A stretch of DNA of 60,662 bases, the filler included, from Hausera hauseri (taxonomy: Eukaryota), in assembly GCA_046269625.1 (NCBI GenBank). It is 10 parts of 10 records of this genome, joined end to end, with 100 filler letters (N's around TTAATTAATTAA, not from the genome) between each part and the next. Parts side by side here need not be neighbours in the genome. Positions count along the whole stretch, not along the records: positions 15,828 to 24,172 come from JBJURY010680995.1; 9 more parts are not named here. One strand, written 5' to 3'. A model generated the notes under the pieces. The model ran no database searches. It saw nothing but the letters and a program-made list of their open reading frames with translations, and was not told the origin of the DNA. Position 1 is the stretch's first letter. Each line of letters starts with the position of its first letter. Position numbers and translations under genes: made by a program. Of the stretch, positions 1,319-53,233 are shown in pieces.

Positions 1319-2112
1319 CTCAACACAGGATATGTCATTGTGATCATCTTGTTCAAAGTCCGAACTGCTGGTATCAAGGAAAAGGTGAAAACTCTGGTCA
1401 TCTTCTGTGCAATATATAAAAAGTTCAAAGCAGAGGAGAGTATGTTTTAATAAAAATGCCTATATTCTTTAGATGTACCCACAACATTAGAAAACAAACC
1501 ATGTGATCCACATTCTCATTCATGACAATATTTAAAAGCAGAAGTAACCATGAACTATGTACATTTCATAAGGTAAGACCAAAAAATAAAGATATTTAAT
1601 CATTATCAAGCCACATGCGCTAAACTAACACTGACATTGTAAAATAAGAAAATAATTAAGTAGTTCTCTCAATTGCTGATAAACATATTGGGACAAATTG
1701 ACACTGGCACTTAAGCACACAATATTTTTTTGTCAGTATAAATGACGATTATTTGCTTACCATTATCTGAAAAGTAAGTTGGGTGGATTTCTTGTGATTC
1801 TTCCATCAGGTCAACTAACTCGTTGTTGTCCTGGTCATAATGCACTATTTCATTTTCATTAACAAAGTCATTAACATTTTCTTCTTCCAAGTCTTCTTGG
1901 TCTGCAAACATCGACTGTGCAGACAGTGAGTTATTTGATGAGACATTCTGAGCTTCTTCTGATCTTGCCTTCTTGGGATTGTTTTCCACAACGACATTGC
2001 TCAGATATCGTTTTTTATGGTAAAAATATTGTGAATGAGAGAGCTCAGTATTGCAGTGTTGACAAAAACGCCTAGGTTTTTGGTTCTTCGTTTTATTAGG
2101 AACTTCCATCAT
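1319..2112 (-). CDS. 5' exons of a spliced gene with an N-terminal Cys/His motif and acidic linker, possibly an EnSpm transposase N-terminus
   Basis: Motif RRFCQHCNTELSHSQYFYHKKRY. Donor GTAAG follows 1761. Second exon at about 1404-1319 is bounded by CAG and GTGAG and encodes EDDQSFHLSLDTSSSDFEQDD. Confidence 0.4.
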
Positions 2113-2300
2113 CTCTGCGTTTTTTGCGTACGTGTGTTAGTATTTAACACCTGGGACCGGTGTCACAACAACATTACCTGTGATTGGACAAGACAGATCA
2201 CGTTCAAGGTGAGACCTCGCGAGACTATAGGATTAACATCTCTTCACCTTCCTCGTCCTCATTTCACATTTGTCTTCTCTGCGCATGCTAACGAACCAAA

Positions 2301-3815
2301 ATGGCGGGACGTAGACTGAATTTTTACTCTCCAGAAACTCCTCGTGGGCCTCACCAACCAGCTACTTCCACTAGTCCCGCCACAGACGAGAAGAGGCTGC
2401 TAAGTGCAATTAGTGGTTTGTCTCGCCAGCTTGCTCAGTTTTCGAATGAGATTTACAACAGGCTGGATTCTCTTTCCGAGAGACTGCGTGTTGTTGAAAC
2501 AAACACAGCCACGACCACGTCTCGTCCAGAAAGCGAAAGGCACGGGAGAAAAAGGCGACAGAACAATCCGAAAATTGCGGTATGATTTGTTTGTTTTTTT
2601 TCCTTCTGCACGAATAATACTAAATATCTTCACAGTAGTAAGTTTACAGTTATTTATTTATTTATTTATTTAGGAGGCCATCCGTCGCCTGCACAGGTCC
2701 GACTCAAGGCTTGAAAGGCAATACGATCCTTTAAAAGGGTAAGAATCAAAGTATTATTATGATGGAGAAAAAGGTTTGTTTTTACTGCTACTTAGCTTCA
2801 CGTTTATTTTCACAGACTGAGTTCGGATCACAATGAGGCCGTGACTTCGGCGTTGGTCGGGATTTTAAAGGCAAGCCCGGATTTTCACGAAGTGGGCACT
2901 GACGTCATTGTTTGTAAGTATTACTCTACGTTACTTTACTGGTTTGCTTATAACTGATGTTGTACTCCATGTTTAAACTCACCCGCATAACTCTCAAATA
3001 TGTTTTTTCAGGTGCATGTAAAACCTTCTATGAGACTGTGCGTCGCAGCTTCCGTTACAGTCAACCCGACCTTGCTGACAAAGCTGCAGCAGCTAAGAAT
3101 TCTGCCCGGTGTCGATCAAGAAGGAAGCGGGTGAGGATTGTGAATCAATTTTTACCTTGGAAACTTATCATAAACATTTTCTTTCTTATCATAAATCCTT
3201 TTATTAAAATGTTATTTACATTGTGTATGTGCTTAGTCAATCCACTGAAGGTAAGTCGGATTTTTATTTAACAAAATACTGTCACATGGATGGCACCATT
3301 TTTGTTAGTATGCTCACTGTGTTATTGTTAATAGGCTAAACTGAGGCTCTGCTTTCATAAAGCACCTCTTCTCCATCCTCATTTTCAGTTGCTGGCTGAT
3401 AAGATATTGTCCAAGATTTTTAATTTTTGTCTTTAACTTCCTCTAAGAGTGAGTTAGAATGACTTTTTTAATTTTTATTGTATTCATTTCTGTTTTGTGT
3501 GTTCTGTGTCAACAGCTGCTGGATGCGAGGCAGAGTGTACTGGTTGGAGAAGAGGTGGCATTCTGGGAAGGTGTCACCATAGACCTAATGTCGGATGAAG
3601 AGGATGGCACTGTTGATGGCGTGTCAGGGTGGATTGTAAGACCTCCTGGTTTCCGAAGCCAGGAGCTCACTGACCTCTGCTCAGCTCTGCAGAAGAGACT
3701 AGATGGAAATCCGAAATACAACGCTACACACCACAAGCGTTTGTACATTGGACCATGTTCAGAAAGATTGACACCGGCACATGGTTCTGAAGTGGACAAG
3801 CATTATGTGTCCTGA
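2301..3815 (+). CDS. C14orf93-like protein, 5 exons, 286 aa
   Basis: Exons 2301-2579, 2674-2738, 2816-2913, 3012-3130 and 3516-3815 have GT-AG introns and consistent phases. The C-terminus WEGVTIDLMSDEED...WIVRPPGFRSQELTDLC...GPCSER matches the C14orf93 C-terminal pattern (MSDEED..W..RPP.FR...LT.LC). Confidence 0.8.
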
Positions 3816-3884
3816 TTCAGTGTTTTTTTTTCTTTTGATATTTAATGAGTGTCTTTTTATTTTGCAGGAGTTCTGTTTTTTTTT

Positions 3885-4405
3885 ATTTTGCAGGAGCTCT
3901 GTTTTTATTTGTAAGAGCTCTGTTTTTATTTGTAAGAGCTTTGTTTTCATTTATAAGAGCTCTGTTTTTGTTTTATTTGTAAGAGCTCTGTTTTTTTATT
4001 TGTTAGAGCTCTGTTTTTTGTAAGAGCTCTGTTTTTTGTTAGAGCTCTGTTTTTTTATTTGTAAGAGCTCTGTTTTTTTATTTGTAAGAGCTCTGTTTTT
4101 TTATTTGTTAGAGCTGTTTTTTTATTTGTTAGAGCTCTGTTTTTTAGTTGTAAGAGCTCTGTTTTTTAGTTGTAAGAGCTCTGTTTTTTAGTTGTAAGAG
4201 CTCTGTTTTTATTTGTAAGAGCTCTGTTTTTATTTGTAAGAGCTCTGTTTTATTTATTTGTAAGAGCTCGGTTTTATTTATTTGTAAGAGCTCGGTTTTA
4301 TTTATTTGTAAGAGCTCTGTTTTATTTATTTGTAAGAGCTCTGTTTTTTTTGTAAAGAGTTTTTTTTTATTTGTAAAGAGTGTTGCCTTTTTTGATTTGT
4401 AAAGA
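3885..4405 (+). repeat. Minisatellite, unit about 20-24 bp (TTTGTAAGAGCTCTGTTTTT(T)A)
   Basis: About 20 tandem copies immediately 3' of the C14orf93-like stop codon. Confidence 0.95.
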
Positions 4406-4970
4406 GTATTTTATTTAAAAAATAAAGCATGTTAAATATCCAAGTCAAAGTCTATAATTTTCTTACTGTATTTTAGTTTATATGATTAAATGAAATCTAT
4501 AAAGTGTTTAATATAATATATAATAGTAATATCATATATAATTCATAATATTCATAAATGGGGAGGGGTTTACCCAGGCCTGTATTTTATAAAGGCTCAG
4601 GCTGTCCAATAGGGACATACTTAACAACCAATCACATGTGAGAAATGAATTGGGAGGGCTTTTACTTTCAACCAATGACGTGGTGGCAAGCCCGTTCTGC
4701 TGCTGTGGCTGTTACCCCCTGTGCTGCAATTCATATGGTAAATGAGGTCATTCACACCTCCAAGCGTAGAGTCCCCGGCGGTCCCCCCGCGCGCACCCCC
4801 CCCCCCCCCAGGGTACGTTTCCGGGAATTTTCAGCGCCTGTAAATGCAAACGTGAGGACTTGAAAATTGCTGCAAATTCCTGCAAATTAGCAAGATTGAC
4901 AGCAGTTTTCAAGGACGAAAATCCCACTTTTCATGCAGTGTGAATTGTGTCATTGATCCAAAGTTAGAGC

Positions 4971-5226: not shown

Positions 5227-8200
5227 CTCTTGAATTTAAGACTGGAAATACATTTATGAAACATAACTTCACTGTAGTTTCCAACATGTCTCGAAGCGCA
5301 ATACTTGGACGTGACTTCCTAAACCAACATAATGCGCGAATATACTTCAATCTTCGGAAAATTAGAATTAATAGCGAATACATCGACTTACAAGATGATA
5401 TTCACATAGCGTCGATTTTGAGAGTCAAGAATAAAGCCACACTCTGTTAAGTTGGTAATAGTCTTCATGAAAGTACTGGAAGGAAAATGATAAAATAACT
5501 GTCGAACCCCTGGCACAAGATGATATCAATAATGAGCCAAGCTTGCAAACCATCCATGGCATAGTACAGTTAAATAGAGAAAGAGAATTTCCTGTCATGT
5601 TGATAAACCGTACGGGAAAAACTATCACTCTCCATAAAGGTTGTGTTATAGCTCAGACAGAAAGGGAAGACAGTAACCATCATATAAATATGAACGAAGC
5701 TAAACTAACCGAGGAAGAACAAAGAAATCAAACAATAAGTTCAAAACAACAATCCATCCAAGAAACAGCCAGTAAAGAACAAAAATACGCGCATCAGGCA
5801 AAACTATTGAGCGAAATAAGACAAGGGATGTGGAATTTGAAAAAAGAAATATCAGTAGCACAAGCTTCAACGGAAGAAGATAGAGTTACAAAATTGCTGG
5901 CAACGTAACAAGCTGATGAAAAATACAAACAAATGATTGAAACCTTTGTGAGAAAACATACGGACATATTTGCATTGTCTGATATCGAACTTGGTAGAAA
6001 GCAAACTGTCGAAATGAAAATTGACACCGGGACTCACGCTCCAATAAGCCTTCGCCAATATCGTACACCATTAGGAAACAGGGAGATCGTAGAAAAAGCA
6101 GTGGAGGAAATGCATAATGCAGGAATTATAGAATGAACCCACTCAGAATGGTCCTTCCCCGTCTTTATTGCCACAAAGAAAGATGGCACACACAGATTTT
6201 GTGTTGACTATAGGGCCCTCAACGCGATAACAACCAATGTTAGTTTTCCCTTACCGCTTATAGACGACATACTTGGCATGTTCGATGAAACCACGCATTT
6301 CACGACACTTGACGCTAGATTCGGATTTTGGAGTATACCGATGGCACCAGAAACAAAAGTAAAGAGCGCATTTTGCACTCATTCCGGACTATATGCATGG
6401 AATGTTATGCTGTTTGGCCTAAAAAGGTCTCCCCCGCCACATATCTGTCGCTCATGAATTGTGCATTAGAAGGTTTGCAAACATTTGCCCTTGCCTACAT
6501 TGATGACATACTGATCTTTACAAAAGGAAACGTGGAAGACTATTTACGCCACATTGAGTCAGTATTCGAGAGACTACGACGTCATAAATTATAACTCAAG
6601 CTTAGTAAATGTGAATTTCTGAAAGAGGAGACCAAATACTAAGGATTTACAATTACGAAGGAAGGCGTGAAACCCGATAGTGATATAGTGCAAGCAATAA
6701 GATCAATGGGCGCACCAACGACTACCAGGGAAGTTAGAGGAATTCTAGGCACATGTGGATATTATCGCAGATTTATCCCTAATTTTTCGGCAATTGCAGA
6801 ACCCATAGTTGCACTTACAAGAAAGTCCGCGAGATTTCACTGGGATGAGGAATGCCAAAAAGCGTTTGAGTATCTGAAGGAAAATTTGTCAGTAGTACCT
6901 TTACTTGCATACCCGAATCCGAACAAACCTTACGTTTTGTATACAGATGCTTCGGAGTACGCCATTGGCGCAGTTTTAGTGCAAAAGGAAGGACAGATTT
7001 AGTCAAAGGGAAGCTGATTACTAAAGAAAAGCCCATATATTTTCTGTCGCACCGGCTCACAAAAGCGCAACGAAAATGGTCAGTCACAGAAAATGAGGCG
7101 TATGTGATTATTTTGCCCTACAAAAGCTTCACTTCTACTTACACAATAGTGAATGTACGATACGAACAGATCATATGACACTCAAAGCTGTGCTACGATC
7201 CGATGTCCAGAATAGAAGAATACAAACATGGATTCTAAATTTACAAAGGTATCAGATGAAAATTGAGTATATACCCGGGTCAGAAAACACGGTAGCTGAT
7301 TTGTTATCGAGAATGCCTACTAGAGTTCACACAGATGTAGAACCTGAAGACAAAGGAGGGACGCCTGACATAGACGACCATACGTTTCAAATTTCAGTCG
7401 TCAACTGGAACGATACGGAGTCAAATGAAACGTATAGTGAACCGGAGTCCGAGCAGAGTGAATTAGAGGATATATGTATAAAAGAAGAACAAAGTAAAGA
7501 CAGCATATTACAACAAATTAAAAGTGAGATGATGTCTACCAATGTAGAGAAAGTCATCAGATGGAAAAAAATATTTGATTGAAGATGATGTACTCTACAG
7601 AATAGATGGAGAAGGAGGGTATCAGTTGTGTATACCTGTTCATTAAAAGGATAGAATATTAGATCAGTAACATGATAAACTTGCTCACTTGGGAAGATAT
7701 TGAACTTATTCGATGATTAAAAGAAAGTATTTCTGGATAAACATGCAAAAGGATATTGCAGAATATATATCAAATTGTCAGCCCTGCAAACTACGTAATA
7801 TGGAATGTTTAAAACACCCCATGCAAGAGCCTGAACATGCAAGATTCCCTTTCGAGAAATTCAGCCTTGATCTATCTGGTCCCCACCCGCCGACAGCGTC
7901 TGGAAATACATACATACTCCATATCGTGGATATATATAGTTGTTGGTCGGAATTGTATCCACTTCCTAGTAAAGCAGCTGAAAATATAGTGGACATTCTA
8001 GTAGAAAAATTTACTCCAAGCTTTGGATGTCCCAGAGAAATTATTACAGACAACGGGACAGAGTTTGTCTACAAAGCCATGAACGACAAGCTTAAAGTAC
8101 TTAACGTGAAACAGATAACAACGTCCTATTATAATCCAGGAGCAAATGGCGTCAACGAATGTCAACACAAAGTTATTTACGATGTTATTACGAAATATGT

Positions 8201-8660
8201 TAAGGATCAACCAGCAGACTGGGATTTATATTAAAACATAGCTCCCATGACATTACGCATAATGGAGAATGGTAGTAGAAAGCATTCTCCGTACGAAATG
8301 ATATTTGGAAGGAAACCTATACTACCACTAGATAATTTATTAACTCCATGGTATCGGTATCAAGGAGATGATTTCCATGAATATTTACTGCGGAAATTAC
8401 ATGAAATTTCAGTCAAGGTCAGTAGAAATGTCAGAAAATCGTTCCAAAAACGCAAAGACCAAAGTGAAGGCAAGACAGTGTACCAAGAATTTGAGATAGG
8501 TGGTAAAGTGTATTATAGTGTGCATCACAGAACGTCAAAAATGCAGAACAAATGAATTCCGGGGTATACGATAATTGAAAAAAAGAGGACCAGTTACGTA
8601 TTTCATCAAGAACCAGATCACAGGTAAAAAAGCAACAGTTACAACAGACTTTTTAAGAAA
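5227..8660 (+). pseudogene. Ty3/Gypsy pol (protease end, RT, RNase H, integrase), degenerate
   Basis: Motifs ILGRDFL; RFCVDYRALN; AYIDDILIF; GYYRRFIPNF; LYTDASEYAIGAVL; YFW..MQKDI..YISNCQPC; IITDNGTEF. Multiple stops and frameshifts. Confidence 0.93.
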
Positions 8661-12007: not shown

Positions 12008-14740
12008 TTATAAAGAAAATTTAAAATCTAGTTTATTAAAAATATTATCAATAAATGCTATGGGGAATTCATTCAGAATAGCATGTTTATATAACTTATA
12101 TACATTACTTTTTATTTTATTCGAAGAACAAATCTTCATTATACGAAAAAAATAATTTAGTAATATATTTCTATAAACAGAAGTGTGCATACACGAAGAG
12201 AAATTTGTGAAGAAATTAACCTTAAAAGGAAATGAAGTTCTTTTATCATATATATTAAAATTTAAACTATTTCTATTAGATATTGTAATTTTTATGTCTA
12301 AGAAGGAAATAGAATTATTTATCATTTCGTTTTGCATAAGAACAAGTTCTTTTGGATAAGAAAATGGCAGAATTAAATTAGAATTATCTAAATGTATTAC
12401 AATAATATCATCCAAATATCTAAAAATTATCTGATTGTCATAATTTATTTTATATTCATAAAAAACAAGATATAAATCGGCAAGTATGCTTGATGCAGAA
12501 CTGCCCTGTGGAATACCATTAACCTGAAGATAAAGTTGATTATCTTGAAAGAGGTAGTTATTATATAAATTAAATTTTAGAATTTTTGGAAAGATATCTA
12601 CATTTACGTTTGATATTTTATTAATGTATGGCAAATACTCAATAAATAAATGAGTTATAACAGAGTACAGATCATTAATATTGATATTATTAAATAAGTC
12701 TTTAAAGTCATATGTATGTATGTGTGTAACATTTTTTATTGATTTAAGTTTATTTATTAATTGAAAACTATTTTTAATGATAGGAGAAGTTTTAGAGATA
12801 TGCTCATGTAGGGGTGCAAGATACCTTAAGAGTAATTTACTAGCATTATTGTTATAAGATTTACATCCTACAGTTACTGTTCTAAAAGTAATGGGATGTT
12901 TGTGAAACTTTGGTATTATGACCAAATATGGGTAATTTAGATTATCACTTTTAATATTAAGAAGTTTATGAAATGCTAATATTTTTTTATTATTTATTTC
13001 AATTTTTGTGTTTATTTTTTTAAAGATGGGATTGAGATTCAAATTTTCATTTAAATGATTTTTATAATATTTTTTACATATTATGGCATAATTATTGGGT
13101 GCTTTGTCCACATATGTTATTACAAAATTATTTTGTAAATTTTTTATAGCATTATTTAAAGTATGGTAGTTAAGATTTTTGGATTTTATAACAAAATTAG
13201 AAAGAACTGCTTTAAAAGAGTTAAAAAGCATATGTTTCCATTCCAAAAAAAGGTCAGGAATTAATCCATTATACTTAGAAATCTTAAAAATAAATTGTTC
13301 AATATCTAACAGGAATTGTAGCGCTATAGATTTTACATTGTTCTTTGATGGTAGTCTGTATTTAGTCCCAAATCCCATAAACTTTCTAAGCTGTTTATAA
13401 TTTACAATGGTTAAGTCACCAGTGATAATGTGTCCTACATCAGTATTAACATATTTTGCATAAGCAGCATCATCACAAAAACATTGATTTGTATCCTCAG
13501 AGTCTTCCTTAGCAATCACATTATAGTTGAAAATTTTACGACCTAAGGCGATAGGGTATTTGAATGTTTTACAAAAGGTATCTATTTTGGTAGGAAAATA
13601 AATTTTATTTTTATTCAAAAGATTGTTAAGGTTAATTTTGTTAAATACTGGATGTGTGAAATTAATAATAAAGTTTGTATCATAATTATTTTTGGATTTC
13701 TTAGTTGTGAATAGATTGGGTATAGATTTTAGTAATTTTACTCTAAAACAAAAAAGATCAAACATAACGTGAGAGAACTGCATGTTTAGTTTAAGATTTT
13801 GTAGAATATTGAGAATTTTAGGCATATATTTCTTTTTCATTGAAAAAATAAATTTTCTAACTTCAAGCCAGTTATAGGATTTAGAATAGTTATCATTTAA
13901 TTTCAGAATACATTTTGTTGTAGAATTTTTTGAAAAAGAATTATTTGCTTTATGTTTACCTCTTTTTAGCCTATTAGTTTTATTGTATTTAGAAAGATTA
14001 AGTTTTCCATAAATTGAGTTATAATTAGAAATGTGTGTTTTAGAATTAAATAAATTACTGGGATACACAGGTAATGGTTTATTATATATCATTTGGTTTA
14101 ACCCATACGGGTAGCAGGTATTATTTTCCAAAATTAGTTGTGATTCAAAAAATAGCCTTTCTGATGAATTAGGTTTAATATTTAAAATTTCTAATTTAAT
14201 ATTATTAAAGCCGTGTAAATGGAAGTGTTGATATTCTACATTATTGATGGAGTCCAAATATTTCAAATAGTTCTTTACATTTGATCTGTGTAGGTTGATT
14301 CTCAGATGTAGAGGGTTACTCGTTTGTCCAATATATGATAATGGACATGAAAGACAGGAAATTTTATATATACAGTTGTACACTTTACAGAAAGTATTTG
14401 GGGATTTAGATGAGATATAATTTCTAGAATTTGTAGATATAAGTTGTTTGGTATCTGCAAAAGGACAAGTTTTACAACGACTGGAATTGCATGGACTGAA
14501 GCGTAGAGCATGGTTTTGATAAGAAGAAATTGATAGGTCACTGTCTGTCGATCCAAGGGTATCCCTATCAAATATACCCTTGTACCGAGCACAAGAATTA
14601 CCATAAGATAATCCTTTTTTGCCAGGCTCGTATAATGTTTTAGACAATGCCATAAGATTAGATATGTTAATGCATAATACATAATAAAAGCAAAAATAAT
14701 ACGTATAAAATAAAAACAAAATATTATGAAGTAAAGACAT
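12008..14740 (-). mobile_element. Penelope-like retroelement ORF with N-terminal GIY-YIG endonuclease followed by RT (Naiad/Chlamys architecture), 910 aa, uninterrupted
   Basis: Order of motifs: PCNSSRCKTC, then CIYKISCLSCPLSYIGQT..L..R...H and ...E......N..YP.GLN (GIY-YIG), then DKAPNN, IPKFHK, YDFKDLF, GIPQGS, RYLDD, FLDI and YDKR (PLE RT). The true start may be MALSK at about 14653. Confidence 0.9.
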
Positions 14741-16077
14741 ATCTTGGCTATATAATATCCTAAATTTAAAATGGGTGATAAAGATAAAACAAAATACTTG
14801 ATTATAATAATAATAATAATATACACATATTTACATGTCCATGCCTAATCGTATTGATACATTGTCCTCAAAGCGAAAAAAAACCACCATAAGAATCTGA
14901 ATTGCCAGCAATATACAAGTTATAATAATAAATAATAAGATCAATTGATGTTAAATAGCGATTATGTACCAGCATATATATAAGATGAGATAAGAAGTAT
15001 ACATAACTATATTTGCGCAAAACGCAGCATATTATACGTTAGTATTAGAAATCATTATAAGATTTAATTCAAGAACAATAATATGTTGAATGATATAATA
15101 TTCTAAATAATTATTCTAAATCCTATCACTGAATTTATACAGACAAAGCCATAATATTTTTTACTGGTAATAATCTAAAGAATTAGAAATTTCATTTCTG
15201 TATGAACGTTATGGTGCAATATTAGAGAAGAGATTTTAGAGATATTACAACTTTTAAAATGGCCGTTAAAAAGGTATATATTTCATGAATCGAACCGTGC
15301 GCGTTGGTTCAATCCATGAAATACACAAAAGAAAAACCAAACTGAAAGAACTGAAATTCTAATCAAAAACAGTACAATGCGTTGTAAATTTTCCAATAAC
15401 CACAGGAATGACTGGCATAAAACGTGCAAGATCACAGTGATGACAAAGAAATTTAAGTCATAACTATTTATTTTTGAAATACATCTTTATTATATGATAA
15501 ATTTCAAGCTCCACAAAATATTCACTTTTGGTTCTCTTACAAAATATTACATTACATTTTTTTTTCTATTCTATAGCAAACATGGAATTAAATTTTACAA
15601 ACTATTTTGAGAATCTAAATCTTGAAATTAATACCTATATTCTCAAAACATGTTCATTTTGTTTTCATACACATTTTCCAAATTTCAGTACCAGAAACGT
15701 AAGCACTCATAATTAATTTACAATATCNNNNNNNNNNNNNNNNNNNNNNNNNNNNNNNNNNNNNNNNNNNNTTAATTAATTAANNNNNNNNNNNNNNNNN
15801 NNNNNNNNNNNNNNNNNNNNNNNNNNNTTTCTAAGGGCCCATTCGTGTTCCAATTTTAATGTCCTATAAATTTCCTGTAATTACGTGAAACGCTGACTGG
15901 CCGTTAGAAGTCTTGGAATCCTATTTAAGTCACGGCTCATTGCTTCGACCATTAATTTAAAGAAAGTTTCTGGTGCAGCTGGTCTATTCCTTCCTTGTAC
16001 TGTTTTCCCCATCCGTTCTTGGACTATTGGATGAGCGGCTATTTTTCTAAGTCCGGCAATATTTGCATCGGATATCC

Positions 16078-16976
16078 CTAATAGCTCAACTTTAAACGGA
16101 CTTGTTGGATATCGGTCCTTCTCATGAGTTGGTCCCTTCTTAACCCAGTCACCTCTGCATATGACTTTCTGACATGTTTTCGGGGGTTTGTGATGGTGGA
16201 ATATATTTCGGTTCCATCTCTTTCTCTAATACATATCTCGACGGGTATCCCATATCCATCTTCTCCTTTGCCGCAATTTGTTGCTAAGATTCTTATATTA
16301 TGTCCACCTTGGACTAATCTATATGATTGTTTATGTTCGTCTTTTTCTACTTTCGTCGGAGTCTGTTGAAATTCCAAAACTGGCAAACCTAAGTTGCAGT
16401 TTTTTTATAGGTCACTTCGAACATAAGTTTAACAGGAAGGACTGCTACCCTAAATTCCAAACCATAGTCGATACTTTCTAGGCCTTGTCTCTTTAATCTA
16501 AATGTACTAAATCGATACTGATGCCCTTTATTGGAATTCCATGGTTGGCCTTCTATTCTGTAGTATAGTTCCCCGTCGGCTAGGTGTATGTATACTTCTT
16601 TATTTTTATTAGTTCGTTTTGGAATCAGTTCCTTTAGTGAGTAGGCTCTGGCTTGGTCATTTTCACGCATTGCGTAGAGGTAAACGGTTCGATTTTCCTC
16701 TATTATACCGTTTAGGTTATTTGGGATCTCGGTCACTTTTGAAAATTCCATTGAAGTTTTTGCTTGGAGGGCTTCCGTTATGCGTCTGTAGATGGATTTG
16801 GTTTTGGGTATGAATACTGTCGCATGTTCCTTTAGGAAATTGTCGACGCTAATTCGACTGATCATACTTAACATTCTGAAAGAAAATACAAAATAAGGGT
16901 CAATCCTAAAACAAAGTATTGTTTTAAAAATGAACCAATTCTTTGTTTGATGGTGGAATAACCCGATCTGTAGTTG
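16078..16976 (-). CDS. In-frame extension beyond the UGA (putative readthrough domain), function unknown
   Basis: 34 stop-free codons link the TGA (16977-16979) to ORF 16389-16874. ORF 16078-16386 follows after a frameshift in an A-run. Homologous to about 38300-39172. Confidence 0.6.
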
Positions 16977-18400
16977 TCAGGTTATTCTGTCATTAATTTC
17001 ATCCTGTGGTACCATCACCCTTAACTCCCTCTCGGTAATTATATGACGCTTATTACAATAGTTTTTGGTAATCAATAGACAAAACACAATAAAAGTTATG
17101 AGAGCGAATACTGACGTTCCAATAATGGATATTAGCGACAACGTTGTCCATTTAGTCAAATTTTTCGTTTTAGCGGTAGTCGTAATCTCATCCTCCGTTT
17201 TCTTGTTGGTTAGTGGCTTTGTTAAAACAATCTCATTTAACGTCCGTACCGTAAACGTTCTACTTTGTTTGTTCTCGGCGTTCATCTGTATTATGTAGTC
17301 TGTTTTGAGTTTTAAACCAATACATTTGACTCGATGACTGCCTTTAACCAATATTAATTTCTGATTATCGTATAATGTCCGGCAGTTTATTTCTACGTCG
17401 TAGTTAAGGGTTTCCGCCACAATGAAGGTTATTTCGCACTGTTGTGGCCAACATCTTATGGGAATTGTTTCTAGCTCCTTTTGAGGTACTCCCATTGTTT
17501 GTAGGAATTTGATGGAAGTTGAAATAGTTTTATTCTTTTTCGCAGTCGTAATTCTGTTGGTTGTTGTTTCAGGGGGAATTTCCAAAATTGGATTTTCCAC
17601 TTGATAACTTCCTAAGAAAATACTTGGCCGGCTTGGTCGAACTTTATATAAGTCTAATCGAATTCTATATTTATGTCCCTGAGGCAACTTGCAGCACTTT
17701 TTCGGCCTTTCAGTGTCAGTTTGACAGTATTGTTGGTTATAAACTGCTTTGTCTTCTCTCAAGAATTGAACCGTTGTTACTCGCCCTTTAATCAACCGTC
17801 CCTTTGTGTTTATTTGGATACAATTATCTTTTAGATTGTCCATTACACTCGCTATATTTTCTTCTAACATCCGTTTCAATCGGTCGATAGACTGGAGCAT
17901 ATCTTCTAACTATATGTTGATGTAGTCTCCATACGTTTATGGTATAACTAAGTGTGAATTCAGATTTATTTCAGAGTGTACTTCATTACAGTTCGGTAAA
18001 TACGCACGGTAGATGAGGGCGTAAGAATGTTCGTACTCCACGTTGCAGCAAACTGTATCGTCTTCTGGTTCGAATTTTGCAATTAGACTCTGCTCCATTT
18101 AATATGTCTTGGAATAGTATCTGGATTTGTCCCTCATATGATGCTGGTGACCTAAACCCGACACATGGAGCTTCTGGCGAGAAATAATCTAATTTTATTG
18201 CTCGTAAAAATTTTTCGTCTTTTAGTTCTGATTTGTATTCTGTAGTTTTCTCCTTTGGAGATGAAGGCTTTAACGCGATTTTCTTGATTCCATATATATC
18301 GCTCAGCGAATTTTCATCAATCCACTATTGGGCGTTAGACTTATGCGTCGGGGCAGCAATCAACGATAAGGCTACTATTATTTGTGCATAAGATACTGGT
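16977..18400 (-). CDS. Second membrane protein downstream of integrase (signal-like segment, Cys-containing ectodomain, FN3-like motif, TM helix); partly degenerate
   Basis: The integrase frame runs into YAQIIVALSLIAAP and coding continues through 18324-17900. ORF 16977-17900 has GLKLKTDYIIQMNAEN, TM helix WTTLSLISIIGTSVFALITFIVFCLLIT and a short tail ending in TGA. Confidence 0.65.
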
Positions 18401-21400
18401 CTAGTGACAATAGACAAAGTCTTGTATTCTCGCGGTCTTAGATGGTAGTGTTTAGCTGGTCTTATATCTGTCTTAACTACTCTTTGGATTGATACGACTT
18501 CCTCTTTACCGTTTTTGTTGACATATACCGTGGTTGGCGTTGTGCGGATGATTTTATATAGTTTTCTTCCGGTACGTGTTAATTTCAAGGACGTACCCTT
18601 TTTCGCGACTGGGTAATGTATATAAACCCAATTTCCTTTTTCTAGATTATGGGGTTTGGTCTTTTTATCATATTGTTTTTTAAATTGTTCCTGGTATTTG
18701 ATTGATAATGTTTTTGCAACTTCCCAACACTTTTGTAATCTTGTCTGTCGGACTTCGGCAAAATTTTGCTTTAGATCCTCGAGGTTCTTTTTGTACGGTG
18801 TCATGCCTAGATCTGTGGGTAAGATTGCCTCTCGCTCGTACATCATAAAGAACGGTGTAAATCCCGTTGCTGGATGTGGGGTTGTATTAATTGCAAATTG
18901 TGTTCCTTCTAGGAATTCAACCCAGTCCTTTTGGTCTTTTGCCACTACTATTGATAATATTCGAATAACTGTTGCGTTCATTCGCTCGACCATTCCATTA
19001 CATTGGGGGTGGTACGCAGTAGTGGTTAAACGTTCGATTTCGAATATATTAGTGATTTCCTTGAATAATTCGCTTGTAAAGTTCCTTCCACTATCCGTTA
19101 AGATTTGTTCTGGTGGTCCGTATTTGCAGATGACTTTTCTTACCACTGCGTCTGCTAAAGTTTCCGCCTTTTGATCTACTAGTGCCACCAGTTCAACGAA
19201 ATGCGTTAGTCGGTCCAGTCATGTTAGAATGTATCTGTTATTTTTGTGAGTTTTAGGCAAAGATCCTACTATATCCATAGACATGGCTTGCATGGGCCTA
19301 TTTGGTACGTTTTTGGGTTTTAATTCTGCTACGTAGCCTTTCGTTTTCTTCTTTTTTGTCGCGCAAACTTCGCACGCTCCTACCCAATTCTTTACATCAA
19401 TATAGATACTTGGCCAGTAGTATTTATTTAATATCCTTTCCAATGTCTTCTTCCAAGACATGTGTCCAGCTAAATATGAATCATGTTCGGCCATAAGTAC
19501 TTCGATGCGCAATCCTTTTGGAATAACTATTAATCTTCTCCCCTTTCGTTCGTAATATAGGATATTATCTTGGTTCGATGCGTGATATTTATGTCCGTGC
19601 TTCTGCAAATGCTTTTTCAGTTGTCATCCTTTGGGCATTTTGCCCTTTTGTGCAAATTCAATAATTTGCTGAATAACTTTATCTTTATCTTGTTCTGCAG
19701 TGATCCTGATCGTTCTATTTAGGGTTAAGGTTCTTTGACGTTCAATTATTTGTTTGAGTTGCGTTTTCTTCGCTGTGGTAATCCCACTTGTTTTTGTCTT
19801 TAACCGTGATAATGCGTCGGCGTCGACGTGCTTATTACCTGGTTTGTATTGGAATTTGATGTTATATCGTGAGATTTCCTCGATCCAGCGGTTTAATCTA
19901 CATGTCGGGTTGTTAGCTTGTCCTCTCAATGTTGTAACCGCTTTGTGGTCGGTCACTATTATAATCTTTTGTCCATAGACATAGACATTAAAGTGTCGTA
20001 GTGTTTCCTTTACGACTAACGTTTCTAATTTGGTAACCGAGTAATTCTTTTCTGCTTTCTTTAACGAGCGTCCTCCATAAGCTATTGGGTATTTTAGTTC
20101 TTCATGTTCTCGTTTCTGAGCTAATTCATATCCTATACCTTCTTTACTTGCATCCGTTTTAATAATGAATGGTAGGTTAAAGTCCGGATATCTTAAAACT
20201 GTTTCGCTTGTCAAAATTTTCTTCATCTCGTCGAATGCTTTTTGTTACACTCCCGTCCATCTCCATTTAGTTTCTTTTTTGAGTAGGCGATATAGTGGTG
20301 CGTTAATTTCGAATTGTCTGGTGCGTAAGTAGCGTAATACCTACATAGGCCTAACCAGTGTCTTAACTCTTTTTGATTCTGCGGTTCCATACAATTGGAT
20401 ATTTTATTTAGCAGGGATTTATCTGGTTTTGATCCTCTTACTCCGACTGTGTCCGAGGTATGATACTGCGTTCTGTGCCCATTTACATTTTTTTGGATTT
20501 AGTTTCAACCCTGCTTGTTCTAGTCGCATGAATGTATCTTCAATGTATTTTAAGTGTTCTGCCTCTGTTTTTGATGCTATCATTACGTCATCCAGATATG
20601 CGAAGGTGTGGTAGAGTCCCATGAGCATCTTATTCATCATTCTAGTAAAAATAGCTGGTCCTGTGGTGATGCCAAACGGCATAACATTAAATTCGTATAC
20701 GCCATCGTGTGTTTTAAACGCTGCCTTATATCGATCTTCTTCTTCGATTTCTACTTACCAGTATCCCGATTGTAAGTCGAGAATGGTAAACCATTTTGCT
20801 CCCGATAGTCTATCTAAAGCTTCCTTTACCGACGGTAGGGGGAACGAGTCTTTCTTCATAAGCGTGTTTAATGCCAGATAATCTGTGCAAAATTGATGTT
20901 TCGTGGTTCCTTTCTTTTTAACCATAAGTATAGGTGAGTACCATGATCGGTAACGCGGTCGAATTATATCGGCCTTTAACATTCGCTGTACTTTAGTTAT
21001 CTCTGGTTTCAGTGAATGAGGTGAGTACCATTTGGGCATTTTCTATTCTTCTAGGTAGATTTTATCATTGGAGCCTGGTTTCTTCCTTAATGGGATTGTT
21101 AATCTCACGGCTTTTTCTCTACCTATGTCTTCCTCATTTTGTGCAATTATTGAACGGTGTTTGCATATTAATTCGTAAAACTTGCAATACGCCTTAGGAG
21201 AGAATTTGGTTTTGACGTGAGGTGGAAATTCTGCGCACTTATACGGTTTTTCCTCTATTGTTATTGCCGATGCTCTGCAAGTGTGACCCAGAGTAGTATT
21301 AGCATGCAATCTCACGTGGGTTGGTGCATTGTTCACTAATCTTATAGGTATGCGTCCCGTCGCTACCCTACACAGGATATTGCTAAACATGAGGTTTGTA

Positions 21401-21969
21401 TCGATATATTCCTGCGGTTCGAAATACACTGGCAGATCTCCGTCTTGACGAATTTGTGCGAAAATTATCATTTTGGTTCTAGGCGGAATATCTTCGTCTA
21501 CCGGAATCCATACTTCGCCTGGTTTCCTTTCCTTTATTACTTTTGTCCCCTTTATTGGTTCGAGTTTAATTAACTTTCCGTTATGCACGTCGATCGCTAT
21601 GCCTGGTATCTGTTTCAATATATCACAACCCAGTACTACGTCGTCTGTTAATTGGTCCATTATCGCAAATTTATGTTGCAGTGCTTGGCCCATCATACAA
21701 ATGGTTGGGGCCCACCTAAATCTTGGCTTTGATATTTGCCCAAATGCTCCTATGCTACCAGGATCCGACGATAGTGGTGGGCATAGTTGTTCTCGTACTG
21801 TGGTTGGTGTTGATTCGTATTTTATAAACGACTTTTCTGATCCTGTGTCGATCAAGGCATATACCTCCCAGCCTTCAATGTATATTTTAGCGAAGGGCCT
21901 TCCTTCTACTACTGTTCCGTAGCAATTTGACGCTGTCTTTGATTGCTTTGTAGTGGAGACTGTGTCCAT
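18325..21969 (-). pseudogene. Gypsy-type pol: protease, RT, RNase H, integrase
   Basis: Motifs ALIDTGS and VLGCDIL; FCTDYLALN, LDLQSGYW, MPFG and YLDD; KTDAS and VTDHKA; H..AGH..YWP..C..C; LTDSGRNF and YHPQCNGMVERMN. Confidence 0.95.
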
Positions 21970-22295: not shown

Positions 22296-24172
22296 TTATG
22301 ACGTTACTGATTTCCGGTCGCAGTCTTCATATATTGGCGCGGTCGGTGGCATGATGGGCAGTGGCGCGTTAATCACTGAGTACATCTTATGCATTTTTAT
22401 TCTGGAACCCTCTTCTTCTCTCTTAGGCTCGTCATCGTCTGAATCGTCCCCCCGAGTTATTATTTTCTTGTTTTTGCGTTTATACAGAATCGAGGGCCTC
22501 CATCGTCGTTTGCGATTATAGTATCTGACGTGGCGTTCTACATCATTTTTCCATCGATTTTGTTCATAGGCCTTAAGTATTTTTCGAAAGTGTGTGACAA
22601 TTGCAGTTAAAATTTTGCAGGAAAATCCTGTTAATGTGAATATTTCATATCCGTTGATGATGGCTTGGATTACTGTTTTAATCAATTGGACTAAAAATTA
22701 GATGGCTAGGAATCGATTCAGTTCATAAGTTCTTTGCCGTGGAAATGCTAAGAATTGCCTAAAAGCTTCTGTCTTTTGGCCTGTAAATTCCCTTATTGGC
22801 CGTGTCTCCAAACTTTTCTTCTGATAATCTTTTGATTAGATTTGTCCCGCTTAGTTTACTAGGAGCTGTAGCAGCGCCTTCATTAGGTAAACTTATCCAG
22901 TCGGTTCCACTACATCGAAACATAGGTTCACCTAAGCTCGTTTTGCATTCCTTCAGTATTGTTGGTTCAGTCGAGTTCGCCAGTAATACCATGATGAGTG
23001 GCATTGCTAATCTCGGCATATTCTCATATTCCGGTAGTTCTTGCATGCATCTTTTTTCTTCTACTTGATCGGCACGTCTCTTTCTTCGCATTCATAAGTT
23101 AGTAGGACTTATCCGGTAACTCGTCCAAAAACACCATATTACATTGGTATAATTGGTGATGCCAATTCTGGGTTGGCATAAATTAAGGCCAATTTGGTTT
23201 TCATGACTTCAGTATCTAATTTGCAGTCATTTGTTATCATTCTGGGGTATAACTCTGCTATTCTGGTCTGTCCTTTCTAATAGAAATAGTCGTCTCGATT
23301 TTTGAGGTAATCCTCGATTTGCACATCTTGTGTCTTCAAATCATACGTTTTCATGTTAATTTTGGTTTCTGCAACGAAAAACGCTTTGTAATTGGTAGCA
23401 TACATAACTACATCGCAGCGTGTTAACATATCCTTTCTAATAAACTTCAACCCATGTGCATCCGACATCAATATCGTTCGTGTAGGTTGTTCTGTTACGT
23501 CCTCCCTTGATCTAGTATTTGCGTTTATTTTGTTTGTATAACGCTTTCCGGTTGTCTCATTAAATTTTAACTCTGATTTTGATAAAATTGCAATCCCTCT
23601 TGGAAGGTGGACTCCATACTACAACTGAACTTCGAAACGTGCAAGCACCATTTTGAATGTGACACTTCTGGTTTTCGGTGAATAGTTTGGTAACACTATG
23701 GAACATCACTTTTAAGGATCTTAGCTCGGTTTTGTAAAAATCTACGACTACTATTCCTCCTTCCTGTCATTTTCCTGTGTCATAATCTGCTCCAACGCAA
23801 TAACCGGTGTGCATGTTTAGTTTTCCTACTGCCACTTTGTAGGCTCTAATTATTTTTCCTTCTTTGGCTTCTAACTCCATGCCGTCCCAAACCATTTTAG
23901 CGGTTAACCGGGCTCCTAAACACTGTTGTCTATCCACATTCATTGGAATTAAAGGTGTGGTTGGTTTGATTAATGAAGAATGCCCGTGCATATTACCACA
24001 ATGAGATACGCTGCGGGATCTTCGTATCATACATTCCGTCGCATCCATTGCGATCAATTCACGTTGTTGATATAGTATATAATTCTTTTCTACTGTCTCA
24101 AACTTATGAGGTCTTGCATCTTCACATGTTTCTAAGTCCATCAAGGAATATTTCTGACCCACCTTGAATTTG
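22296..24172 (-). pseudogene. Chuvirus-like (class III, gB-like) envelope glycoprotein
   Basis: Motifs YSLMDLETC; ECMIRRSRSVSHCGNMHGHSS; GYCVGADY; YLKNRDDY; YEC...CMQELP; KGIY; C-terminal IKTVIQAIINGYEIFTLTGFSCKILTAI. These follow the motif order of chuvirus glycoproteins. Several frameshifts and stops. Confidence 0.75.
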
Positions 24173-26160: not shown

Positions 26161-26912
26161 ATCGTCGTAATGGAAAATGCGAGAAAATTGGCCGAGGAAA
26201 ATTCTGAAATGAAAGAAAATTTACAGAAAAATTTGGTACTAATTTACGAGTTGATATTTACGGGCTACAATAAAATAAAAATGCTGTTGTGTTTATTCTG
26301 ACCCTTCTGTAGGACAAGTTGCGTCAATTTGTGGATGGCAGAAAGCGACATGTTGATAAGAAATTTTGTGAGGTTGCTGTTGATTTGAAGAAAATTCGGC
26401 AAGTGCAAGTGAGATAATTTGATGAAGGTTTGCTGCAGAATGTCCAATTTAATATCGAGTTTGTGTGGCGTGTACCAAATATAACCGATAAAAAACGGGA
26501 TGCAGAAGTAATGGAAAATGAAGTTATCGCGAGTGAATATTTTTTTACCCATCGCAATGGATACCGCATGATAATGAGTTTATATCCCAATGGAGATGGT
26601 GATGGCAAAGGAACTCATTTATCATTATTTTTTGTAATATGCAAAGGTCCGTTTGATGATATTCTGCAGTGGCCAATGAAGAAGAAAATCAAATTGGCCA
26701 TTGTTAATCAGCGAACTGGTGGCGATTACAAACCAGTTGAGTTCTGTTATGAAATGGATAAGGATAAAAATGCAGATGTTTATCAAAAACCGACAAATGA
26801 AAAAAACTGTTCATTTGGTTATGAGAAATTCATCAGTTGGAACGAACTACGATCGAATGCTAATATAATGAAAAACGACGTCATTTTCTTCAAATGCACA
26901 ATATCTGACTGA
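26161..26912 (+). CDS. TRAF-family coiled-coil plus MATH domain protein (partial, possibly a pseudogene)
   Basis: FTHRNGYRMIMSLYPNGDGDGKGTHLSLFFVICKGPFDDILQWP...FGYEKFI is the TRAF MATH signature. Upstream coiled-coil exon 26161-26235. In-frame TAA at about 26415 in the exon starting 26313. Confidence 0.85.
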
Positions 26913-29035: not shown

Positions 29036-31153
29036 TATCTTTCATATGGTGAACATTAGGGTTATATTTTGATTCTTTTTGATATTGAGCAAAATAGTTT
29101 TTCTGCATATCAAGATAGAAGGATATGAGTTCTTTTCTTAAATAATCTGATGATTCCCATAAATAATTTGCGCACTGGATACTTTGGTGAATGTCTTAGT
29201 TGTTCCTTTGGCGGGATGTTATTTCGTTTTGATACATTATTGCCATACTTTCTCTGGTCGGATTAAGTCGTTTAATTCTCTCTTTCCATTCTAATTGCAT
29301 TACATGAGTTTTTCTAAGGTCATTAATCATTATTTTCTTGTCTGGAGCTTGATCCAGTGTGATTAAAGGATTTCTATTATCCAAAGGTAGATGAGCTACT
29401 CGGTTAGCGACTGCATATAATTCATATTCCTCCGTGGAAAATTCATGCCGGTCTCTACAAAGTTTATTTATATCACTAAATATTGGAACGACTTCATTAG
29501 CAGTTAAGTATGGATGATCTGTTATTGATTCAACTCCTTTGGCGATTAGCGCTATGATTATTTGTGTCTCTTCAGAAAGTATGTCAAAGGGAGAATAAAT
29601 CTCTTCTTTTATATAATTGATAATGTCTTCATTCTGTGTTTTTAGGAGTAGATAATGCTGATTAAGTTTTGGATCTTTGGCATAAATAACCAAATTCAAC
29701 TGAACTGTAGTATTCAAGTTTAACCATTCTGCATCTTGTTCAAATCCTTTAACAAAGACTTCTTCTGCTCTTTTTTCTTCTTGTAACCTTTTACGTTCAT
29801 AATTCTCTATTTGCCGAGATAACGGTAGGTGTGAGTTTAAGGTGAAACTTTGGGGTTTGTATGTCTCTACTTGTTTAACACAATAATTATCTACACGTTC
29901 AATATCTTTCTTTTCGCATTCGAGTGTCAATGGTTTATTAATTGTTATTTCCTTTAATCGTGCTGTGGTTCGACGTTTTATTAATTTCGGTTCGATAGTT
30001 GAGACTTCTTCTATTATAGTACGTCCCTCAGTTGGAGTAATATCCTCGTCACTATTTGATTGTTCAGCTGTTTTCATATGGAACATTAGATTAACGTAAA
30101 TTAGTAGTATCAGCCAAATAGACGGACTTTCTTGTGTAACATTTAGTATCGATGGAGTGGCTTCTGCTGTTCCAAATAATATAAATGGAATAATGAGTAA
30201 TATTAATATTGGATAAGTTAATCCATTACTAATTATGCTGAACTGGTTTCTGTTGAATGATATCTTTTCATTGGCTTTTCTTTCTTTATTAGTACTTGAA
30301 GTACTTACATCAATAGGTCCGAATGCATTCGTGCTGGCCTTATCACTACCAATTATCCGACCGTTAGAGTCATTACTACGAATATCGACAACAAATCGTC
30401 GCTTTCTTTCTTGTAATGTACGTCTGTCTATTCCTCCATTTTGGATAAATTTTTATTATAATGTAAACTTAAGATTCGCTCATCAAAAGCATTTGTTCTT
30501 CTGAGGCTCCTTGTCATAACTGCTGCTGTTTCTTCATCATTAACTACATTTTGTCTGCGAGTGTTTATTATCCTTTTTCTTTCTTCTTTAAATGGTTTAG
30601 CTATTTCGTCATTATCATTTAATTCACAAAATATTATATGATACCGTATTGCATTTAGTTTACCTAAAAATCTACTTGCATTTACTGTATCAAATCTATC
30701 TATATCCATATAATCCTCTGGGGTCAATATGGTGTTCACATCTCGTCCCAAGTAATCGTTCCACACTATCCGTGCTTCGTCTCCCTCAAAAAGTTTTATA
30801 TCCTCTCGAATAAGATTATCCTTTATAGCCATAATTGTGCAGGTCATCCAACAATTAATCGCATAAGCTTCAGACTGAGAATTAGCATTTAACTCCTTAC
30901 CGTAATACCTAAACAAGTCCAAACATCAATTAGCTATCTTTAGTATTCTTTTAGGTGTTCTACTTGCTATTAATTTCGGAGAGTGTCTTTGAAGATAGTT
31001 AGTTATACTGGTTATAGGGAATGACAGTGGTCTCTTTTGCAAAAAGTGAGTAATTAACATTCGTTCTCTTCGACTTCCGATAAATAGGGGTTGATATTTG
31101 TTTCTATCTCCGTATACTACAGGTTCTTGATTTCTATGCTTCTTAAAATGCAA
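29036..31153 (-). pseudogene. Long degenerate ORF of unknown family with two hydrophobic segments, probably retroelement-derived
   Basis: ORFs 30926-31153, 30428-30922 and 29196-30086 join through one stop and one frameshift. The last frame is open upstream to about 30460 and includes YPILILLIIPFILFG and IWLILLIYVNLMF. Confidence 0.45.
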
Positions 31154-32160: not shown

Positions 32161-32772
32161 AGCTGTTTGTTAATCCACCGTTCAAATTTAAACAAATATG
32201 ACAACTGTATCAATTGGTGAATTCAATTTGCGACCCACTATTTTAAAATTAAAGCACGATTCGCATCCAGTAAAAACATTGAATGTTTGAATTTGTTACC
32301 GCTAACAATGTATCGAAGTACTGGTCGTCTTACAACGATGATCACTCATACAATGGATTCTCTGGTTGAGGGACCGAGCGTACCCGCCCCCGTTGCGCCA
32401 TGTCCCTTTTCTTTTCTCATCTTTACTAATACTAAACATGTCCACACATTAAGGGTGACACACAAAAACAGCTCATATTCTCTATACTGAATTGTCCTTT
32501 TTTGGCTTTTTCGATTTTTATCTTATGAACAACGATCTAACTTTGCAACCTTACGACTCTTTTTCATCCTTTGCGCCCGAAAAATATTTCATCACTCTCA
32601 CGGTCCATTTTTACATCCGTGGTGGATCAGACCTTCATCCTTCTACTGAACACTTAACAAAAACTAGATTTGGTCGTCTTCCTGTCGACAGCACACCAAC
32701 AACTCCAAATCTCCCCTGCACGGATTTTTTCTAGAAAAGACGATTTCTAGTCGTACCCGGCTTCAGTTCCAT

Positions 32773-33648: not shown

Positions 33649-33678
33649 TGCCACCAGATGCTACGGCACATTCTGGTA
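33636..33678 (+). promoter_or_regulatory. -1 ribosomal frameshift signal at the gag-pol junction
   Basis: A_AAA_AAC in the gag frame, a 6-nt spacer, then TGCC/GGCA and ACCAGA/TCTGGT pairings. The -1 frame reads into FLIDSGA. Confidence 0.7.
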
Positions 33679-38199: not shown

Positions 38200-39790
38200 A
38201 TACTTGAAACATATATTTTATTTACCAGGATTTGTACAATATAAACCCCAATGGAAATATTTCGTTTTTCTAGTATTTCTTGGATTTTGTATCCAACTAG
38301 GACACATCCGTAAAGACAATGTTTGATTTCGGCACTGACCAATTTAATGTCTTTACTATCCTTTAGATGTTCTTTTTTTATTCCCGTTGGTTTAGAAAAT
38401 GTCTCTCGAATTCTTTTTCTGGTAGCGATAATCTTGAACTAAAGTTCGCTTCCGTGTATTTCTCTAATTGAGACTTCTATCGGAATATAATTCCCGCCGT
38501 CTTCTCCTCCGTAGTTCGTTTTGATCTTTCTCTTTTGGCTTTTGTCTGAACCTTAGGGGGTGGAACTTGTATATAAGGGACATCTTCATAGGTAACTTCC
38601 ACTAAAATTTTTACAGGCAGAGCGGTTATCCTGAATTCCAACTGATATTCCTTCAGGTTTCCACTACATAGATGAAAAGTGCTAAATCTGAATTACCTTC
38701 CTTGATTTTCGTCCCAGTTCTGCCCTGTTATCCGATATTATAGTTCGCCTTCAGCTAGGTGTATGAAGAGACTTTGATTATATACTAGCTCGTATGTAAT
38801 TAATTATTTTAATCTAAACGCTCGGGCATCCGAGTTGTTCCTCATTGCATAGAGTCGCATGGCACGATATTCTCCACTTGTGCATTTAAGATTATTCGAG
38901 ATTCTGCTGGTCTGGCTGAACTCAACGAATGTTTTTTCCTATAATTCAGTTCTAATATAACGATAGATTGACTTGGATTTAGGTACTGGCACAATAACAT
39001 ATTTATCCAGATATTCATTGACACCATGCCTCTTCTGATCTTCGGCTTTCATCACCATGATAGTATTTACCGCTCTAAAAGTAAAAAAATAGAGGTTAAT
39101 CCTAAAACTCAGTACTGTTTTAAACCAAAACCAATTCTTTGATTGATGACGGAATAACCCGATCTGTAATTGTCAGGTTATTTCACCATAGGTTTTGTCT
39201 TGGGGTACCATTACCCTTAATTCCCTTTATTCGATTTTATGTCGCTCACACTGACAGTTTTTGGTAACTAACCGAAAAGTCGCAACTAATAGTATAAGAA
39301 TGAACGTTGTTAGTCCAATAAGTGATAAAATTGGCAAGGTCGTTAATCCAGTCGGTTTTGGGTAGTGATTGGAGTTATTATTTCATAGTCTATATTTTCA
39401 TTTAGACGGGGTTCTGCGTGGATTTCATCCAGAGAGCGTAAGGCGAATGTCTTGTTTCGTTTATACTTCGCGTACATTTGTATTACATAATCCGGCCGTG
39501 GTTTTAATAAGTTACATTCTGTCTGATAACTATTTTTAAAAAATGTCACAATTTGGTTATTGTGCAACGTTCGCCAACTTATATGAATATCGTAATTTAC
39601 TTTTCTTCCACAGAAAACACGATTTTATACTGCTGGATCAAGTGTTTAATAGGTATACTTTCTAATTCTCTTTTAGGTGTTTTTTCACTTGAGAAGTTGA
39701 GTACTCACTTGAGTAGTTGATTTTCTTGTTGTTGCTTCAAGTGAAATTTTCTATACTTGCTCTTCCGGATAGTATCTTCCAGAGAAAAGC
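38200..39790 (-). mobile_element. Diverged second copy of the 3' module of the 15828-24172 element
   Basis: LLKPRPDYVIQMYAK, a TM segment, RELRVMVPQD...IT-TGA-CAA-TTA, QLQIGLF.HQ.KNWF, PKSKSIYR, IHLAEGEL and LEFRITALPVK all align with 16078-17600. Confidence 0.85.
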
Positions 39791-52947: not shown

Positions 52948-53039
52948 ATATTGTAAATGTTACTTTATTGTTATACCAATAAATTTTGTTTGAAAAATCG
53001 TGTTTTGTTCCACCTCAAGTAATATGGAATAAGTATATA

Positions 53040-53215
53040 GGTTAATATTAAGTAAATACATTAATCAGTAAATCAATATATTAATCAATACACTAATATA
53101 TACAATGCATCAGTAAAATGAATCAATACGCTCATCAATAAATCAATACAATGCATCGATACACTAATCAATACACTTATAAATAAATCAATACTATGCA
53201 TCAATACATGTATTA
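53040..53215 (+). repeat. Low-complexity array of ATCAATA(C/A) units
   Basis: About 10 copies of ATCAATA/ATCAGTA upstream of the RING ORF. Confidence 0.7.
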
Positions 53216-53233
53216 CTCTGTCATTATTTCAAA

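Follow-up and report, generated by a model that had tools for sequence, protein, structure and literature searches.

A conserved UGA between two accessory ORFs of an envelope-carrying Ty3/gypsy-type element as a probable programmed leaky stop codon

The UGA codon at 16977..16979 (minus strand) of the DNA stretch from Hausera hauseri analysed here (the window, 60,662 nt including filler) is probably a programmed leaky stop, and our comparisons suggest that this stop is conserved and belongs to an accessory gene of a Ty3/gypsy-type element with an envelope. The codon is directly followed by CAA-CUA (16971..16976, minus strand), a CAR-YYA context. The preliminary description of this DNA had proposed that programmed readthrough at this codon adds a long cytoplasmic extension to a membrane protein. 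On the grounds of context, conservation and relatives, this is the best-supported reading, whereas its account of the stimulatory hairpin, of the route to the downstream protein and of the length of the extension is corrected below.

The window consists of ten contigs with N linkers between them, and its content is mostly animal repeats. On the minus strand of the contig at 15828-24172, read 5' to 3', a gB-like envelope gene is followed by protease, RT, RNase H, integrase and two further ORFs. The gB-like envelope (Monjiviricetes_fusion) gene lies in pieces at 22299..24171 (minus strand), directly upstream of pol, and is truncated by the contig end; it matches Pfam PF24664 with E 9.5e-12 at 23770-24171 and, under the curated cut-off, with E 9.9e-06 at 22299-22697. 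The pol gene, likewise in pieces (18328..21969, minus strand; Pfam RVP, RVT_1, RT_RNaseH, Integrase_H2C2 and rve), begins with the protease from 21969 and has the Ty3/gypsy order. The domain order PR-RT-RH-IN is common also to BEL/Pao, and the integrase relatives (25-48% identity) that are named include Ty3/17.6-like Pol. The contig begins within env and stops within the last ORF, with gag and the LTRs outside it. The strongest donor-like site of the element by a crude matrix, CTG/GTAAGT, lies within RT at 20758 (minus strand).

A second, more decayed copy of the two-gene cassette is located at 38265..39695 on a separate contig, also on the minus strand, with its TGA at 39175-39173 and an acceptor-like AG ending at 39075. 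Both copies are decayed fragments with many nonsense and frameshift breaks elsewhere, and our conclusions therefore concern the element family rather than these two insertions.

The rest of the window holds several further features. Two long ORFs of 418 and 165 codons at 29196-30925 (minus strand), with a TM-like stretch and without a Pfam match, adjoin a second gypsy-type pol at 32668-37073 (plus strand). A further LTR-element piece at 5471-8234 (plus strand) has RNase H and integrase preceded by a weak match to dUTPase, and a Penelope-like ORF of 940 codons with GIY-YIG and RT occupies 12008-14830 (minus strand) in a stretch of 23-28% GC. At 51291-54296, a 385-nt inverted repeat, 95% complementary, adjoins a DNA polymerase B fragment and is Polinton-like, and a tandem array of ~22-nt units is found at 3856-4413. 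An uninterrupted BLTP1-like ORF of 2097 codons (PF25040, E 3.5e-180) lies at 44895-51188 (minus strand).

All of the sequence quoted in the preliminary description is confirmed, and both junctions read as given there: ATA-ACC-TGA-CAA-CTA in copy 1 (TGA 16979-16977) and ATA-ACC-TGA-CAA-TTA in copy 2, each on the minus strand and each with the stop followed directly by CAR-YYA. The earlier translations of the two linkers are likewise correct, the post-stop frame is open in both copies, and the two indels between the linkers, of 3 and 24 nt, keep the frame. Silent sites differ between the copies at 4 of 25 positions in 16988-16880 but at 52 of 95 in the flanking sequence (Fisher p 6e-4), and enhanced silent-site conservation is a signature that has been used for readthrough elements (PMC3159437). 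We conclude from the sequences that an RNA-level element spans the junction. Between the copies, dN/dS of the downstream domain is 0.46/2.52; by this comparison the domain was evidently under protein selection and the downstream ORF was translated.

Variation in the family was followed in a single public run that contains it (X1; 27% of words, kind unrecorded), in which 554 contigs were compared over 16860-17030, counting only contigs at least 80% alike and excluding differences near contig ends; differences at 2% or above number 20 in all. The summed depth is 57,000-90,000 at 16938-16985, 1,787 in the first bin and 1,355-3,282 from 17004 on. UGA, CAA and the final UA are free of variants at this threshold, and the sole variant listed for the context is C/U at 16973, with 53% of the depth, which falls on the degenerate Y. 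None of the 20 single changes creates a stop in the readthrough frame, and no indel is among the differences of at least 2%; a gap of 68 nt that takes in the stop occurs in one contig, of depth 5. A sense codon at the stop or a frame-breaking indel in the linker, either of which had been named as contradicting the proposal, is seen neither at 2% or above in X1 nor in the relatives.

The junction 9-mer itself is not rare, with 8 matches in the window vs 5.9 expected, and CARYYA accounts for 20 of the 8340 hexamers on the sense strand of the element. Unlike the 9-mer itself, the placement of CARYYA at the junction and the conservation of the surrounding nucleotides are each beyond chance. A decay stop in pol at 19626, TGA-CAA-CTG, differs from the context by one mismatch, so look-alike contexts arise by chance. 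The open 33-codon linker alone is weak evidence for readthrough: shuffling gives p 0.19 and 0.17, and in copy 1 the +1 frame is open as well. In a mammalian reporter, UGA-CARYYA gave ~15% readthrough, similar to UAG (PMC4132726).

Relatives of both ORFs extend the comparison. With the 506-aa X-joined protein as query, a full HMMER search returned five matches. Two of these, P0059 (479 aa) and P0061 (189 aa), align with the membrane ORF (31% and 45% identity), and both protein sequences terminate where it does, after I-T; because relatives this distant end there, we do not regard the stop as a product of decay. The downstream ORF is matched by P0060 (870 aa) and P0062 (333 aa), in which the frame is open from approximately codon +15 and codon +10 past the stop, respectively. 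Their N-termini match the linker in the readthrough frame only (52, 54, 7 and 77 of 2000 shuffles; other frames 209-1994), and both have 55-67 open codons before the first internal Met (chance ~0.05 and 0.03 each). The ENA contigs that encode P0060 and P0061 are each 16,242 bases long and are probably one and the same. The fifth match, the protocadherin P0063 (E 3.6e-07), was dropped as TM-only. None of the five matches spans the junction, so no sense-codon relative supports a fusion. Scans of viral, metagenome and genome contigs brought up no relatives with DNA context. Word-seeded protein searches, run with the downstream ORF and with the alignment of the two copies, likewise returned no relatives, and none of 56 integrase relatives has a TM-like tail or a match to the accessory ORFs. 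The frame match of the linker, the open codons before Met, the in-frame register and the 3-nt indel in the linker are each modest points; taken together with the context, they favour readthrough.

The stop had been described as lying in a hairpin with the arms AATAACCTGA and TCGGGTTATT, and these are identical between the copies, as claimed. In the predicted fold of the free RNA, this hairpin (hairpin A, 16956..16987, minus strand) has the stop within its 5' arm, with z = -4.1 and -3.0 for the two copies in 61-nt windows, and the X1 variant G>A at 16964 (12%) keeps its pair. Since this predicted hairpin contains the stop, it must be melted at decoding and cannot be the stimulator in the known sense; we infer the melting by the decoding ribosome from the distance of ~8 nt to the mRNA entry site (PMC3159437). 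Hairpin A alone would conserve UGA, but not the loop bases after UGA.

When the footprint of the ribosome is excluded from pairing, the 3' arm of hairpin A becomes free and is predicted to pair with a downstream segment, forming a stem that is mutually exclusive with hairpin A and starts 12 nt after the stop (stem B, 16897..16964, minus strand; 16964-16955 pairs with 16906-16897). The pair probabilities under this blocking are 0.90-0.98 in copy 1 and 0.82-0.91 in copy 2. In copy 1, 16906-16897 is the best partner of the arm across the 8.3-kb contig; in copy 2, the stem B partner ranks just behind a site at 38632. All nine stem B pairs are kept in copy 2, two of them via one-sided changes, and none shows compensation on both sides. 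Conservation does not extend to the inner helices, 3 of 12 pairs being broken in copy 2. In X1, the variant at 16955 (22%) keeps stem B, and the one at 16964 breaks one pair unless accompanied by a partner change. With no two-sided change, unconserved inner helices and the 16964 variant, stem B as a readthrough stem is therefore only plausible. From the folding predictions it would be a likelier stimulator than hairpin A, and a 12-nt spacer has been reported for Sindbis (PMC3159437). Rfam returned only three weak miRNA-hairpin matches on 15828-18600, below the gathering score.

The first reading missed a strong 3' splice-site match at the linker end in both copies, through which the downstream ORF could be expressed with no need of readthrough. 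This signal (16876..16903, minus strand) comprises a branch-like TTGAC, a pyrimidine tract and a CAG ending at 16876, followed by an in-frame ATG at 16874; in both window copies, an in-frame ATG lies within 17 nt of the acceptor-like site. Of the 243 YAG sites in the contig this one scores highest, and its homologue ranks first among 64 in copy 2. Its pyrimidine tract sits on an A-rich strand, and it resembles a host acceptor in the window, that of a TRAF MATH-domain exon at 26290-26912 (plus strand; CTGAC, pyrimidine tract, TAG). Both distant relatives have a Phe-rich run and then Arg or Lys at the acceptor position, and all four sequences carry an in-frame Met between this position and domain A (see below), the first internal Met of P0060 and P0062 lying ~35-45 codons past it. 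With the top-ranking 3' splice-site match of the element at the linker end, splicing has to be taken seriously, either as a rival or as a second route.

As a rival, splicing would make the UGA an ordinary stop, and the downstream protein would come only from a subgenomic mRNA spliced at the 16876 acceptor, with the hairpins regulating the splice site or acting as a genome-RNA signal for export or packaging. The rank of the site in both copies on an A-rich strand, its likeness to the host acceptor, the Phe-rich run with Arg or Lys and the Met shared by the four sequences all speak for this reading, as does the report that third ORFs of LTR elements typically come from spliced messages (PMC5408684). 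However, under this reading four features would be coincidental: the CAA-YUA, the register of the frame, the tract indel of 3 nt and a frame that is open ahead of the acceptor in four lineages. The branch-like motif is the 3' arm of stem B, so that only the tract and the AG count as independent splice evidence. In addition, a crude weight matrix found no strong donor near the stop, the conserved AGG/GT at 17018 being weak and out of phase. We therefore consider it unlikely that splicing is the only route. A nearby splice that excises the stop in frame was rejected on phase. Readthrough alone, for its part, leaves the pyrimidine tract on the A-rich strand unexplained; given readthrough, the chances are slightly better than even that the acceptor-like site also supplies a free downstream protein by splicing. 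Another acceptor-like site, modest and third of the 243, lies at 18396-18440 (minus strand), just before the signal-peptide-like stretch, and given this site the membrane protein itself may derive from a spliced mRNA.

Expression of the downstream ORF from an internal promoter, or by re-initiation at a nearby ATG, would mean that the conserved block is an element, of DNA or RNA, with no connection to the stop. There is a precedent in Candida Tca2, in which an apparent readthrough junction held a weak promoter and showed no readthrough in yeast (PMC2194720), and in-frame ATGs do follow the linker in the window copies. Nevertheless, the ATG position is not conserved among the four sequences, and the long open stretch before the first internal Met of the relatives also counts against such a start, which we regard as improbable. 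UGA is also the codon used for selenocysteine, and the copies carry many nonsense mutations, but decay by mutation, selenocysteine insertion and a variant code that reads it as sense are all very improbable here, decay and code change being largely refuted: it is fixed in both copies and X1, two distant relatives end there, the 2097-codon host ORF has 17 TGG, no internal TGA and a TGA at its end, and no SECIS family is among the three Rfam matches in 15828-18600 (the 3' end of the element is outside the contig).

The membrane-protein gene upstream of the stop spans 16980..18408 (minus strand), as judged from hydropathy and from tblastn of P0059, which covers the region in two frames. It encodes a signal-peptide-like start, repeated Cys-containing ectodomain units, an FN3-like domain, a TM segment at ~17144-17073 and a short tail ending in I-T. 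In copy 1 the gene is broken by in-frame stops and a frameshift near 18080. ESM Atlas gives FN3+TM look-alikes at 0.91, a lead only. An in-frame TAG at 18325-18327 (minus strand), directly after the signal-peptide-like stretch, is in frame with integrase, and P0059 has no codon at this column; it may reflect either decay or a second junction. The tails of copy 2, P0059 and P0061 end in Y-x-x-I-T (16980-16997, minus strand), which we take to resemble a tyrosine sorting motif, and copy 1 is without the Tyr.

Downstream of the linker, domain A (16407..16850, minus strand) is predicted from the model of a relative to be a double-stranded beta-helix of the AlkB/2OG-dioxygenase-like type. AlkB/2OG-Fe(II) dioxygenases bind iron through HxD/E...H; across the four sequences, domain A retains one invariant His only, in IHLA[DE]G, and is thus without the triad. 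The model of the first domain of P0060, built on a six-row alignment and of moderate confidence, has pLDDT 51-82 over residues 51-200, and its residues 49-204 match Ofd2 with Z 9.9 and rmsd 4.2 over 141 aligned residues; the top 13 structural matches are all of 2OG-dioxygenase type. Foldseek on the 870-aa model was noisy, its short matches being also of cupin/AlkB types. A single-sequence model of the downstream ORF (pLDDT 35, fold matches Z at most 5.3) was set aside.

Domain B (15839..16389, minus strand), in two frame pieces located by tblastn of P0060, is DnaQ/DEDD-like, matching DnaQ 8h18 with E 1.7e-05 and the PolC exonuclease with E 4.9e-03. It is without the acidic residues: the ExoI DxE is AxN in copy 1, P0060 and P0062, and a hydrophobic residue takes the position of the ExoII Asp in P0060 and copy 2. 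P0060 continues to a RING finger (PF00097, E 2.6e-07), which is known only from this relative because the window contig ends (15828) at P0060 residue 417. The proposed extension would thus be much longer than the domain originally quoted, the relative P0060 having 870 residues. Pfam returned nothing for either accessory ORF in the window, PDB sequence searches with the membrane ORF, A2 and A5 gave nothing significant, and ESM Atlas had no usable match for the downstream ORF.

We suppose that most ribosomes would terminate at the UGA, the product being a type I surface protein whose tail is short, and that a minority would decode it owing to the CAA-YUA context. Stem B, which could form 12 nt downstream once the ribosome melts hairpin A, would likely aid the decoding. 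Ribosomes that read through would go on into the AlkB-like, DnaQ-like and, in the relative, RING domains, yielding a membrane-anchored form. The short product would be a surface or particle accessory protein, and the long product would present two catalytically dead nucleic-acid-enzyme folds and a RING anchored at the membrane. Viral membrane-anchored RING ligases exist, and by this analogy the long product perhaps recruits element RNA to budding sites or ubiquitinates host factors.

A more elaborate picture is possible, though rather doubtful: an errantivirus-like invertebrate element with a cassette in the style of complex retroviruses, in which one 110-nt RNA switch sets three products and the elongating ribosome flips a stop-hiding hairpin into a readthrough stem. 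The products would be a short surface protein, a transmembrane RING ligase made by readthrough, whose RNA-binding domains are catalytically dead and of AlkB-like and exonuclease-like types, and the same tail in free form from splicing.

The recoding signal is one of a known class, found here in a combination and a setting that are new. Type I readthrough, as in tobamoviruses, uses UAG-CAR-YYA, and Providence virus, an animal virus, has UAG-CAA-CUA, with the same six-base context after the stop; a structural protein is extended as well in the coat-protein extensions of pomoviruses and benyviruses (PMC3542737). Natural type I cases generally have UAG (PMC3542737), although UAG is not required, whereas the stop here is UGA and is preceded by CC rather than the favourable AA; moreover, the element is a retrotransposon in which a membrane protein would be extended and the linker holds a splice-acceptor-like site. 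With type II readthrough of alphaviruses and furoviruses, the junction shares UGA, silent-site conservation over ~100 nt and a predicted two-arm stem after a 12-nt spacer, but UGA is followed by CAA instead of the CGG or CUA of that class, and here the stem's 5' arm has an alternative pairing that covers the stop (PMC3159437).

Among retroelements, SIRE1 of soybean likewise uses stop codon suppression outside gag-pol to express an env-like ORF. It is, however, a Ty1/copia element of a plant with the event at the pol-to-env junction, whereas the present one is of Ty3/gypsy type, from an animal, with the junction between two accessory ORFs. The GAG-ENV-POL errantiviruses of nematodes, bryozoans and flatworms, with an HSV/gB-type env, similarly have a gB-like env upstream of pol in Ty3/gypsy order (PMC13524379); the available part of that source mentions neither readthrough, fibronectin nor splicing, and ORFs after pol were apparently not looked for there. 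Bdelloid Vesta and Juno elements carry extra 3' ORFs, including DEDD-type and TM proteins, but their DEDDy exonucleases keep the catalytic residues, and readthrough and RING go unmentioned in the portion of the source at hand (PMC5408684). Troyka elements were rejected as a match, none having an envelope in the part of the source available (PMC12440569). In the open-access literature we found no description of the cassette after pol or of readthrough at its junction.

Readthrough in retroelements is known mainly at gag-pol, and at pol-env in the plant element SIRE1. The junction is short and directly testable, the overlapping splice site being a known trap for reporter assays. If our reading is true, an animal retroelement that carries a natural UGA-CARYYA together with a stem like that of type II would link two classes of readthrough, and envelope-carrying Ty3/gypsy elements would have accessory genes and recoding like those of complex retroviruses.
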